Below are positions 2,249 to 7,613 of a stretch of 64,000 nucleotides of DNA, piece after piece. Each line of letters starts with the position of its first letter. The stretch's first letter is position 1. A model generated the notes under the pieces. It did no database searches. It was not told where the DNA came from and saw only the letters and a list, made by a program, of their open reading frames with translations. The position numbers and the translations under genes are program-made. The stretch is from an uncultured Chloroflexia bacterium (GTDB lineage: Bacteria > Chloroflexota > Chloroflexia > QHBQ01 > JADMIH01), in contig CAWCNY010000004.1 in NCBI GenBank assembly GCA_963797095.1, positions 320,001 to 384,000 on the forward strand, read 5' to 3'.

Positions 2249-3421
2249 CTAGGGCTTCTGTATCTCCAGCATCCTGAAATCATCTGTGCAGTAATACAAC
2301 TTCCTGTCCGAGATGAAATAGACATCCCCGTCAGTGCTCGAAGGTGTCCTACGCACGAAGATGAGTGTCCCATTTGTTGTGCTCTGTCGAGAGTTCCCAA
2401 AGTCGTCAAAGTTTACTTCATTGTTCAGAGGATCGCCGATCAGTTGCGCGTTGGCCGCGCTCGCGTCGTGGCACTTCTTGAACCCCTCTGAATAGACCGG
2501 CCCCGCTGGCACAGGAGTATCGCCCGGAGCCGGCGTCACTGTTATTTCTGCCACGGGCGTCGGTGTGGAATTCGTCGAGCCTTTAAATAGCCCTTTAACA
2601 AAGCCGTCATAGCTGCACGCCACTGTGCTCAGTGGATATGGTAGCGGGAAACGACACAAACTCAAGAAGGATGGGCTTATCAGAGCCAGAAGTGCAAACA
2701 TAAGTATGACTCCAATAAGCGGACCGCGCACACCCTTCAACGGCGGCTTCTGCACAAACTCGCCCACCACCTCTTTAGCATCCTTCTCGTCGCCATCCGT
2801 TGGCTGCGCGATCACCGCGAATTGGTAGCGGCGCTGTTGCCCTATTATCTTCAGGCCCGGTCGTCGCACCGTCACAGGCACGACCAGTTTCGTGCCTGCG
2901 TTCACAGTCGGCTGCTTCCCCTTGAATTTATAAATCAGCTCCGATTCCTGGTCCTTCCCCTCGAGGTCCAACTGTAGCTCGCTATTCCCGCCATTCGACA
3001 GGGTAAGACGGTACTTCCCACGCCACGCCGTCACTCTCTTGGGAGCCAACTCCATCTGGAATATCGAGTACGAACCTACCTGCAATACGCCCTTCGTGAC
3101 GCCAATCATCGTCGGATCGGAGTGCGAGCGAGCGCGTACCGTGAAAGTGTAGTGTCCGGCCCGCGTCCCGCTCCCCTTTGGCGGGTGGAGCCGGATCGGG
3201 ATCGGTGCGCTATCGCCGGGAAACAGCGACACGCTCTGTGCCGTGATCGTGTACCAGGTCGGGTCGAGATTCTCCACCTCGATCCGGTACTGGTCAACCG
3301 TAGTGGTGGCGTTACGCACATTGGCGATCACCTCCACCGGCTCGCCCCCCGCCGCCACCTTGATCTCAGGCGGCGTCAGGTTCACTACAATAGGTTCCGA
3401 CCCAGGCGTGGCTGTGAACAT
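2249..3421 (-). CDS. CIS-associated single-pass membrane protein, paralogue 3 (tandem N-terminal beta-sandwich domains, TM helix, PT linker, small outer domain)
   Basis: ATG at 3421 preceded by GGGAGG SD. N-terminal motifs shared with two neighbours (VDQY...VSLFPGD; LAPKRV...RGKYRLTLSNGGN). TM PLIGVILMFALLALI. C-terminal LIGDPLNNE...QSTTNGTLIF resembles an LGFP-like cell-wall repeat. Confidence 0.75.
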   Translation of the reverse strand: MFTATPGSEPIVVNLTPPEIKVAAGGEPVEVIANVRNATTTVDQYRIEVENLDPTWYTITAQSVSLFPGDSAPIPIRLHPPKGSGTRAGHYTFTVRARSHSDPTMIGVTKGVLQVGSYSIFQMELAPKRVTAWRGKYRLTLSNGGNSELQLDLEGKDQESELIYKFKGKQPTVNAGTKLVVPVTVRRPGLKIIGQQRRYQFAVIAQPTDGDEKDAKEVVGEFVQKPPLKGVRGPLIGVILMFALLALISPSFLSLCRFPLPYPLSTVACSYDGFVKGLFKGSTNSTPTPVAEITVTPAPGDTPVPAGPVYSEGFKKCHDASAANAQLIGDPLNNEVNFDDFGNSRQSTTNGTLIFVRRTPSSTDGDVYFISDRKLYYCTDDFRMLEIQKP

Positions 3422-3429
3422 AAAGACTG

Positions 3430-5973: not shown

Positions 5974-6026
5974 GTCGACCTGCCTGCGCTCAGTTATCTC
6001 CGGTTCCGATCACTGAGCGCCCGGCG

Positions 6027-7613
6027 CTAAGGCTGCACGGTGATAGTTACCGTCCCCTGGACCTGCCCGAAATTGTTCCGGGCCACCAGGATATGCTGTT
6101 CCGTCTGGCGGGGTTGCAGCGAAACGCTCCCGTTTGGCCCTGTGACCTTACTTCCGTCAAAGAGTATCTCGTCCGCTCTCAATACTTCCCAACTCACTAC
6201 CACCCCGTCGCCAGGCTTGATCAACTCCGGCTCCGCCTTGAACGAAGTGATCTCCGGAGGGCGCAGCAGCAGAACTCCCAGGCTGCGGCTCGCCGTCTCT
6301 TTGCCGTTTGTCGCTATCAACGTCATAGCCTGGTCTGACGTCGGGTCCACGGGCTTTGTGCCCACAAGTGTAACCACATCCGAATTTAGTGTCACTGTCA
6401 GCGCGTTCGTCACCTCCCACGTCACCGCCAACCCGCCACTGCCATCTGTTGTCCAATCGAACTTCAATATTCGTAATGGCCCCATTCCCCCCGGACCGCT
6501 GTTAGCCGCCGCGACCGCCGTAAGAGTCGCCGGGATGTTCGGGCCGTTCGCGGCCTGCGCCGTCAGTGTAGCGGCCACGTTCGGCCCACTATTCGCGGCC
6601 AGCGCTGTAAGTGTAGCCTGCGCATTCAGCACAAGCGCCGTCTGTGTAGCGCTGGCGTCCACCGCGTTTGGGTTCCGATTGTCGGTCGGCCTCAACAAAA
6701 GGAACAGTAACAAACCCAGCAACAGCAGCGGGAACAACACCGCCAGCACCCGCCGCAACACCAGCGGCATCTTCGACCACCACGAAAAGACCGGGCGATA
6801 CACAAGCTCGCCCATTATCCGCCGAGCCTGGTATGCTTCCCATTCTATTCCCGGTGGTGTAGCCGCGATCTCAAATCGCAAGTCCCGTTCAGGTCCAAAC
6901 CAGATACGTTTCGCTGGCCCCACCGTCACCGGTATAGCCACCAGCGATGATGCAGGGATAGTCATAGCCAGCGCGCCCTGTGCGGCCTCCTCGCCCGGCG
7001 CGGTCCATTCGGTCGCGACGCGCGATGCCGGTGTGGTTTCACCCACAGCCGTGCCCGTAGCCACATCGAAACTCTCTGTAGGCGCGTTAGGATCGGACCG
7101 CTTCCCGCCTTTCACTATCGGCGTAACCTGCGCTTCCCCGAACGCAAAACTCAGAATCTCGTCGGCATCCGAGGGGTGCAACACCACTGCCCGCTCGATG
7201 TTCCCTTCATTTCGCAGCGACAGTGTGAACACACCCTTGCGTGCCACCACCTTCTGTGGCTCGATCTCCAGCACCAGTTCCGACTCGGGGGCAATCGTGA
7301 GCGTAATCGTTGCTAAGGAATACTCCGTGGCCGCATCAACCGATGTGACGAGAAGCTGAAACGTGTAACTACCCGCTAGAGTAGACCCCACGGGCGGGTG
7401 AACTTGCAAGTTCACCTCAGCTGCATCACCCGGAAATAGCGAGATCTGGTCGGACGCAAGTGTGCACCACGATGGGTCCACGTTGGTCATGCTCAGTTGG
7501 AAGGCATCCACAACAGGCCCTGAGTTAGTCACCGTGAAGGTAATACCGGCTGTTTCGCCCGGCGCAAGTTGCAAATCGGTCTGTTCAGGTGTAAGAGCTA
7601 TCCGGGACGCCAT
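6027..7613 (-). CDS. CIS-associated single-pass membrane protein, paralogue 1, with ATLTAxAANxGP repeats and C-terminal Ig-like domains
   Basis: Shared N-terminal motifs (VDAF...ISLFPGD; LEIEPQKV...KGVFTLSLRNEGN), TM VLAVLFPLLLLGLLLFLLL after LRR, three short tandem repeats, then PPEITSFKAEP...VSWEV beta-rich domains. Confidence 0.75.
   Translation of the reverse strand: MASRIALTPEQTDLQLAPGETAGITFTVTNSGPVVDAFQLSMTNVDPSWCTLASDQISLFPGDAAEVNLQVHPPVGSTLAGSYTFQLLVTSVDAATEYSLATITLTIAPESELVLEIEPQKVVARKGVFTLSLRNEGNIERAVVLHPSDADEILSFAFGEAQVTPIVKGGKRSDPNAPTESFDVATGTAVGETTPASRVATEWTAPGEEAAQGALAMTIPASSLVAIPVTVGPAKRIWFGPERDLRFEIAATPPGIEWEAYQARRIMGELVYRPVFSWWSKMPLVLRRVLAVLFPLLLLGLLLFLLLRPTDNRNPNAVDASATQTALVLNAQATLTALAANSGPNVAATLTAQAANGPNIPATLTAVAAANSGPGGMGPLRILKFDWTTDGSGGLAVTWEVTNALTVTLNSDVVTLVGTKPVDPTSDQAMTLIATNGKETASRSLGVLLLRPPEITSFKAEPELIKPGDGVVVSWEVLRADEILFDGSKVTGPNGSVSLQPRQTEQHILVARNNFGQVQGTVTITVQP

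Follow-up and report, generated by a model that had tools for sequence, protein, structure and literature searches.

The left end of a 64,000-nucleotide stretch of DNA from an uncultured Chloroflexia bacterium (GenBank assembly GCA_963797095.1, contig CAWCNY010000004.1, positions 320,001 to 384,000; hereafter the window) is one long minus-strand operon that Pfam matches identify as an Afp-like contractile injection system (CIS). Our subject is three tandem genes of this operon, called A, B and C here, that each encode a shared N-terminal module, one transmembrane (TM) helix and a C-terminal part of its own. Paralog A (6027-7613) has 528 amino acids, with the module at residues 1-272, the TM helix, a Q/A/T-rich linker and two beta-rich C-terminal domains. 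Paralog B (3430-5973; about 847 amino acids if its start is the ATT at 5973) continues after the TM helix with a region shared with A, a long PT tract and a P-domain-like C-terminus, and paralog C (2249-3421; 390 amino acids from the ATG at 3421) has a module with a short second domain, the TM helix, a short PT tract and a small C-terminal domain. The preliminary description of this DNA had read three paralogous open reading frames here, and all are present on the minus strand where it had placed them. With short gaps, they lie between two genes of the baseplate side and an ATPase gene, all on the same strand: the Tail_P2_I baseplate wedge protein Cis12 (8826-9533; Pfam), which has no FHA or Ig extension, and a 393-residue protein with a Cis13-like N-terminal domain and DUF4159 (7616-8797; Pfam and NCBIfam) come before A, and a Cis15-type AAA ATPase with a winged-helix domain (1-2088) follows directly downstream of C and runs off the window. 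From sequence comparison, we see about an even chance that A, B and C act on the membrane side, as adaptors or receptors coupled to the CIS baseplate, and not simply as fired toxins.

The shared N-terminal part proposed for the three proteins is clearly present, with around 230 to 280 aligned residues and 36% and 28% identity to A, and the motifs singled out for it (VD.[FY], SLFPG, PQ[RK]V and N.GN) are invariant columns of the alignment. Each protein has exactly one strong hydrophobic helix (residues 289-307 in A, 272-290 in B and 233-256 in C). The absence of signal peptides and the basic residues ahead of the helix were likewise correctly described: there is no N-terminal hydrophobic segment (maximum KD19 over the first 40 residues 0.63-0.75), and lysine plus arginine residues number 3, 2 and 3 on the N-side of the helix and 2, 1 and 1 on its C-side in A, B and C, respectively. 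That the outer C-termini differ among the three is borne out by sequence comparison. The region after the TM helix that A and B have in common gives only a weak PKD match (E 0.071), and the C-terminal domains of B and C find no sequence match in the PDB and no Pfam match at E<=5. As to the labels previously given to these domains, the P-domain likeness of B is supported indirectly, by its resemblance (BLASTP E 8e-6) to the C-terminal domain of a paralog elsewhere in the same genome that matches Pfam P_proprotein (E 2.7e-5), and for the LGFP label of C the atlas offers a weak lead (score 0.90, with the family carried by 16% of the cluster members). The stop codon of the Cis13-like/DUF4159 gene lies 2 nucleotides before the start of A. 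For B, no ATG, GTG or TTG start encodes the whole first domain, although the reading frame already opens at 6009; with GTG 5868 as the first canonical start, around 35 residues of domain 1 are lost, and ATT 5973 lies within two codons of the ATG start of six of the nine homologues inspected, so either a rare start codon is used or the start has been lost. In a tree of the module, the A-type sequences form a group (92/86), the B-type a clade (95/95) and the C-type another (100/100), with every type at a constant place in the operon, and this separation into clades in a fixed gene order tells us that the paralogs are old and specialised and that the paralogy is not chance.

The new element of this analysis is a set of gene fusions among relatives of the three proteins. 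Four distant Chloroflexota genomes have a gene after Cis12 that does not encode DUF4159, and their module lies in proteins that run from a Pkinase domain through an FHA domain and the module to a TM helix and a variable end such as Calx-beta (an order seen by Pfam in genomes G295 and G314 and by tblastn in G075 and G361). The layout of these proteins places Pkinase at residues 1-270, FHA at about 350-440 and the module at about 480-700, with one TM helix and no second hydrophobic peak above 1.55 between kinase and module. Cis12 itself has an N-terminal FHA domain in the same genomes (Pfam in G295, G314 and G361; tblastn only in G075). The FHA-Cis12 genes of these three Pfam cases and of Deinococcus taeanensis, each followed by a Pkinase-FHA-module-TM gene, lie at L050:3952-4992, L057:16036-16965, L061:6564-7484 and L074:15707-16744, and the case seen by tblastn only is in L055. 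The L050 locus also has a methyltransferase gene (4928-6592; PKMT_2nd and MethyTransf_Reg) between FHA-Cis12 and the first kinase-module gene. The arrangement recurs on a plasmid of Deinococcus taeanensis, where Pfam finds FHA-Cis12 and, in the next gene, Pkinase and FHA ahead of the module; the proteins at this post-Cis12 position in D. taeanensis and D. grandis plasmids have 1613 and 1602 amino acids, respectively, with a module match that begins at residue 421 and a single TM helix near residue 700.

In another Chloroflexota family, the module itself is joined to the baseplate (genes at L063:16943-17845, L063:17838-19481 and L065:17716-18633). The N-terminal part of Cis12 is a copy of module domain 1 both in G331 (E 1.1e-7 with A2, a profile built from six module copies of the window's genome) and in G219 (hhalign probability 93%), in contrast to the N-terminus of the window's own Cis12 (0.07%). 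The Cis13-like/DUF4159 protein has an N-terminal FHA domain in G331 by Pfam and in G219 by tblastn and reading of the open reading frame, and the next gene of G331 starts with an FHA domain (Pfam) and has a module match in the adjoining stretch. A link of the module to baseplate or fibre had been suggested before, and the fusions FHA-Cis12, FHA-Cis13-like/DUF4159 and module domain 1-Cis12 speak for it at the level of gene architecture. The variety of C-terminal partners was also anticipated, with outer domains that vary across the relatives. None of the four kinase-bearing Chloroflexota loci checked has a PP2C phosphatase gene. Our literature search found no paper that describes an FHA domain or a kinase with a CIS other than a type VI secretion system (T6SS), and the accessible parts of Geller et al. 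2021 contain no kinase, FHA, Cis12 or Cis13-like fusions of this kind.

These fusions also bear on membrane topology. Kinase and FHA domains work in the cytoplasm. With both placed ahead of the module and no TM helix between them, the module should be cytoplasmic and the window's proteins N-in, which is the strongest topology argument we have. We therefore infer that A, B and C are N-in single-pass proteins with variable C-termini outside the membrane, as the preliminary description had proposed, and the lack of signal peptides, a positive-inside bias and tail-anchored relatives support the same orientation. Among 115 relatives with a single TM helix, lysine and arginine are more frequent on the N-side of the helix in 84 and on the C-side in 6, and 18 have no more than 50 residues after the helix in the manner of tail-anchored proteins. 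The cysteine content of these single-TM relatives rises from 0.0016 before the helix to 0.0108 after it, and PT tracts, P-domain, cupredoxin, RICIN, Calx-beta and PD40 domains are all found on the C-terminal side.

Around A, B and C, the operon encodes the expected parts of an injection machine. Beyond Cis12 follow, all on the minus strand and, where a family is named, by Pfam match, Cis11 (Baseplate_J, 9581-11542), gp25 (11597-12001), VgrG (12167-13894), a tube-LysM protein (13968-14627), a 1076-residue protein without Pfam match (14641-17871), an eCIS_core/DUF4157 protein (18456-19100), the tube (19788-20252), the sheath (20347-21954) and the Pvc16_N cap protein (22065-23045). A search of the window's genome gives a single sheath match and a single gp25 match, both in this locus. 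The 1076-residue protein, which lies between the eCIS_core/DUF4157 and tube-LysM genes, is weakly conserved in related loci (C-terminal third only, 25-34% identity) and may be a tape-measure-like or cargo protein. A BTAD regulator gene adjoins the operon upstream. There is no FHA match anywhere in the window, and Pfam finds neither FHA nor kinase in A, B or C. A listing of sequencing runs includes no RNA run, and two soil-metagenome DNA runs of a single study contain small shares.

Co-occurrence of the module with CIS loci, a check suggested at the outset, turned out to be strong. Our 401 Chloroflexota genomes are related by descent, and the counts are descriptive and carry no statistical test: the module profile matches in 87 of them and the CIS marker Pvc16_N in 76, with both in 66, the module alone in 21, Pvc16_N alone in 10 and neither in 304. 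Pvc16_N is thus found in 66 of 87 module-positive and 10 of 314 module-negative genomes, and at E<=1e-18 in 49 of 52 module-positive genomes. For the 54 genomes with a match at E<=5e-18, the module gene lies 1.4 to 22.8 kb from Pvc16_N on the same contig in 29, Pvc16_N is on a different contig of a fragmented assembly in 21, and it is missing in 4; the 29 linked genomes hold 63 strong matches, and 46 of them lie within 45 kb of Pvc16_N. Gene order is conserved as well. All six related loci in metagenome-assembled genomes of Chloroflexia that include the upstream flank (L041-L046) read Cis7-VgrG-gp25-Cis11-Cis12-DUF4159 protein-A-B(-B'), with the Cis13-like/DUF4159 gene directly upstream of the A-type gene each time, and a C-type gene followed by the ATPase gene is seen in L045 and L048. 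Distant Chloroflexota families likewise have their module genes after Cis12. In-frame stop codons, one TGA or TAG each, interrupt the DUF4159 gene of one of the MAG loci (L041:8807-9991) and the Pvc16_N matches of three genomes (G295:C1:2024453, G207:C76:13038 and G108:C107:569), which could reflect sequencing error, pseudogenes or recoding.

The immediate neighbour of A had been described as fibre-like, a reasonable label that we now correct to a Cis13-family domain joined to DUF4159. Residues 22-186 match CIS13_fam (NF053767) with E 5.6e-16 and 58.8 bits, far below the equivalog cut-off of 370, and residues 247-378 match DUF4159; the protein has no TM helix, and an atlas search with its N-terminal part gave scores of at most 0.82. 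DUF4159 itself surfaced in one Pfam paper in our literature search. The Cis13 of Anabaena, as described by Weiss et al. 2022 (PMC8894136), binds the baseplate and, by its own TM helix, fixes the particle in the thylakoid membrane. Both cases thus have a protein encoded after Cis12 and a tie of baseplate to membrane via a TM helix (the tie being our proposal for the window), but in the window the Cis13 domain sits on a protein without TM helix and the helices are on the adjacent paralogs. We considered A, B and C themselves as Cis13 proteins with a TM helix and rejected this because the Cis13-like domain is on the TM-less neighbour; CIS13_fam has no match in any of the three. A complex prediction of the Cis13-like/DUF4159 protein with Cis12 and the module of A gave an ipSAE of 0.00 in two runs, which speaks neither for nor against binding.

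The module has a fold of a widespread type. A single-sequence AlphaFold model of A was poor (pLDDT 42.7), and we used instead an alignment-based model of residues 1-310, which is confident (pLDDT 88.6) and has one beta-sandwich at 5-107, another at 113-272 that contains a disordered insert (169-193), and the TM helix directly after them. Foldseek against the PDB returned generic tandem Ig folds only (integrin calf, pilins, HYDIN/ASH and CEP192; TMq <=0.40), and matches so generic allow no functional inference from the fold. At the level of Pfam, paralog C in its GTG-3493 reading matches FixG_C with 31.2 bits against a cut-off of 25.6 (E 2.7e-7), B in its GTG-5868 reading stays below that cut-off with 13.5 bits, and A has sub-threshold matches to Cep192_D3 and Ig_VWA7 only. 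The domain type is common: in a set of 1.84 billion proteins, the A2 profile matches 10,269 representatives with E<=1e-3, and 541 reach E<=1e-30. Among the representatives listed, many begin with an N-terminal module and continue with one TM helix, and some string several modules together and end in a TM helix. Counted by Pfam in 57 representatives, FixG_C occurs in 42 (E<=1e-4), Cep192_D3 in 18, NPCBM_assoc in 14, FHA in 6, Pkinase in 5 and PD40 in 5; one source names an actinobacterial relative "COG1470 family protein". The module thus resembles NEW3/NPCBM_assoc, FixG_C, ASH/Cep192/HYDIN and PapD-like Ig domains in fold and by weak sequence matches, mostly below the Pfam cut-offs. Bacterial Ig families of the NEW3/FixG_C type are usually extracellular, whereas the module of the window appears to be cytoplasmic.

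Taken together, the fusions to kinase, FHA, Cis12 and Cis13-like proteins place the module in the cytoplasm and argue for a baseplate-coupled receptor or adaptor over lumen cargo. From this, we infer a contact with the baseplate and an adaptor or trigger role for A, B and C, which might work as follows. The tandem beta-sandwich module would lie in the cytoplasm directly under the membrane, with the TM helix as its anchor, and the Ig-like, PT-stalked P-domain-like and small LGFP-like C-terminal parts would be displayed outside. The module would couple to the periphery of the baseplate, either directly or through the Cis13-like/DUF4159 protein, with Cis12 and the Cis13-like protein as the putative contact. 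In this way, the three proteins could recruit, position or trigger a cytoplasmic CIS at the membrane, and the three old paralog types probably act together and are not interchangeable spares. In kinase-bearing lineages, a phosphothreonine/FHA step may come on top, similar to that of PpkA, Fha and phospho-TssL in type VI secretion.

The closest published proteins are Sco4256-4258 of the type IId CIS of Streptomyces coelicolor, three paralogs with a similar N-terminus, one TM helix and differing C-terminal domains (Casu et al. 2023, PMC10066040). Vladimirov et al. 2023 (PMC10020575) predicted three parts, namely a first domain of pilus-chaperone (PapD-like) type, a TM segment and a third domain that varies, used the term "putative toxin", and noted class IId homologues in cyanobacteria and Chloroflexi. 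The idea that the window holds an undescribed system consequently does not stand, as both the architecture and the paralog triplet match these published proteins. The bridge between the two groups is a RICIN protein from the CIS cluster of Streptomyces sp. NBC_01426 (module 8-220, TM helix 223-241, RICIN 319-463), which the A2 profile matches with 99.2% hhalign probability (E 2e-19 over 213 columns; tblastn E 2e-4). Because of this match and the shared architecture and context, we file A, B and C as Chloroflexota members of the Sco4256-4258 family, with the link to the Sco proteins themselves made by architecture and context. Whole genomes were searched within Chloroflexota, and beyond this phylum the comparison covered plasmid records of Deinococcus and actinomycetes. 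A tblastn search of plasmid records with the module of A returned 11 of them, 5 from Deinococcus, 3 from Streptomyces, 2 from Streptantibioticus and 1 from Kitasatospora, and in four of the five inspected the module gene lies inside a CIS cluster, on the Kitasatospora plasmid two genes after Cis12 as in the window. Both triplets belong to one Afp-like CIS cluster each and have a pilus-chaperone or Ig-type N-domain, but the C-termini in the window are Ig-like, P-domain-like and LGFP-like and not RICIN, and its genes follow Cis12 and the Cis13-like gene and are not in the other arm of the cluster. They also differ in the role assigned to them, which is lumen cargo in the published work and membrane adaptor or receptor in our proposal.

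This difference has to be weighed, since the Streptomyces experiments, the location of related particles and the copies of the module apart from CIS genes all weigh against a role in docking. One alternative, which we regard as possible but doubtful, is that A, B and C are CIS effectors whose module serves as a loading domain, whose TM helix damages the target membrane after firing and whose C-terminus targets or modulates the toxin. Casu et al. 2023 called Sco4256-4258 CIS effectors, found them toxic in E. coli and reported that about 85% of the particles of a triple mutant have an empty tube lumen, compared to about 3% in the wild type, and that this mutant phenocopies a CIS deletion; Sco4256 was also detected in purified particles (Vladimirov et al. 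2023). The preliminary description had set its receptor idea against proteins that co-purify as tube cargo, and the Streptomyces literature comes close to that picture. The presence of Sco4256 in particles also agrees with a particle-binding module. The homology of the module to that of the Streptomyces module-TM-RICIN protein favours the effector interpretation as well. So does a copy on a Streptomyces cadmiisoli plasmid (L076:11977-13798) that lies directly upstream of a PAAR gene, has a lytic transglycosylase gene beside it and is otherwise free of CIS genes for 12 kb around, a typical effector context. Finally, eCIS_core/DUF4157 genes, which Geller et al. 2021 associate with eCIS toxins, are part of the same loci. 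However, it is hardly plausible that a tube carries relatives of 1000 to 1600 residues, which have kinase and FHA domains in front of the module and as many as about 900 residues behind the TM helix, and the FHA domains on Cis12 and on the Cis13-like protein point to signalling at the baseplate. Moreover, tail-anchored forms with several modules and coiled coils resemble scaffolds, three paralog types in fixed order are unusual for effector cassettes, and, by our own reasoning, toxicity in E. coli is not specific when a membrane protein is over-expressed.

We think it unlikely, though worth stating, that the proteins are kinase-associated receptors that sense the envelope without docking any particle, regulating CIS expression or assembly or doing unrelated work there, with the module as a spacer or oligomerisation domain. 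Copies apart from CIS genes speak for this and against docking: of the 63 strong matches that the linked genomes contain, 17 are found outside the CIS, and kinase(-FHA)-module-TM genes stand alone in two genomes without a Pvc16_N match. In the window's own genome there is a one-domain module copy with a P-domain outside the CIS on a third contig and, on contig C2 (L009:142-4674), a second A-B pair away from it. The surroundings of this pair are a cellulase-SLH gene on one side and an SLH protein on the other, with molybdoenzyme genes nearby, and its B-type member has a cupredoxin-like domain. The BTAD regulator next to the operon and the generic tandem Ig fold, which has no CIS-specific structural match, fit the same interpretation. 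Two further points count against the adaptor reading itself: in Roseiflexus and Deinococcus, free CIS without membrane attachment were observed in the cytoplasm (Gaisin et al. 2026, PMC12998442), and the window's proteins have neither kinase nor FHA, unlike their fused relatives. Against receptors without docking, FHA and module domain 1 are fused to structural proteins of the baseplate and not to transcription factors, the genes are embedded in a structural operon between Cis12/Cis13-like and the ATPase, and Sco4256 was found in purified particles. That the module is instead outside the cell (N-out), as part of surface or S-layer-like adhesins exported by an unrecognised route, is highly improbable: its NEW3/FixG_C/CARDB-like domain type is usually extracellular, and in 17 of 148 listed representatives a hydrophobic segment at the N-terminus precedes 13 to 20 repeats of the domain, which are probably outside the cell, but there is no signal peptide, the positive-inside bias is on the N-side, relatives have kinase and FHA on the module's side of the membrane, and PT tracts, cysteines and all the outer domain types listed above are on the C-terminal side. 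Holin-like or anti-sigma-like roles were dropped for want of matching domains.

A membrane adaptor for a cytoplasmic CIS has a precedent in CisA (SCO4242), which is required for firing of the Streptomyces system (Casu et al. 2025). Like CisA, with its cytoplasmic part of around 285 residues, A, B and C would be bitopic N-in proteins encoded after the baseplate wedge genes, and the proposed function of CisA, to bring the particle to the membrane via a baseplate protein, is comparable to the one we propose here. Yet the N-terminus of CisA is described as largely unstructured and its C-terminus as a conserved substrate-binding-like domain, whereas the window's proteins begin with a folded double beta-sandwich. 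We therefore rejected A, B and C as CisA homologues, given this folded N-terminus, C-termini without a substrate-binding-like match and no sequence relation found. On the NBC_01426 plasmid, the product of the gene after Cis12 (L073:3551-5188) combines a zinc ribbon, a TM helix near residue 364 and an F5/8-type-C-like C-terminus, and in position and layout it fits the published description of CisA. Close cisA homologues are absent in Roseiflexus according to Gaisin et al. 2026, and the accessible parts of that paper do not discuss the membrane proteins described here.

If A, B and C are membrane-side adaptors or receptors, their kinase-bearing relatives suggest a comparison with the threonine phosphorylation pathway of the T6SS, which comprises the kinase PpkA/TagE, Fha1/TagH and phospho-TssL (reviewed in PMC13584744). 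The related CIS loci of Chloroflexota and Deinococcus similarly encode a membrane Ser/Thr kinase with an outer domain and FHA domains, and a component of the machine carries FHA as well. They differ from the T6SS pathway in that they are not T6SS loci, that FHA is fused to Cis12 or the Cis13-like protein in place of a free TagH, and that the four loci lack PP2C; the window's own locus has neither kinase nor FHA. Tentatively, and with more doubt than conviction, we suggest that the Sco4256-4258/Ig-module family as a whole might be no tube cargo but the membrane receptor of a trigger pathway of cytoplasmic CIS, an independent counterpart of that of the T6SS, in which, in Chloroflexota and Deinococcota, a kinase-FHA-module-TM protein would sense the envelope and FHA-Cis12 or FHA-Cis13-like proteins would dock the baseplate on phosphothreonines. 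A, B and C with the Cis13-like/DUF4159 protein would then represent a version independent of phosphorylation.

How cytoplasmic CIS meet the membrane and what fires them is an open question to which CisA gives a part-answer for Streptomyces. The genes of the window are themselves further members of an already published family. That family of membrane proteins is conserved in the CIS loci of Chloroflexota and Deinococcus, and its relatives are fused to a Ser/Thr kinase and FHA domains. These fusions make the triggering of cytoplasmic CIS directly testable and question the cargo status of the Streptomyces "effectors", whose published interpretation would have to be revised as well if the module family does act as a trigger receptor.

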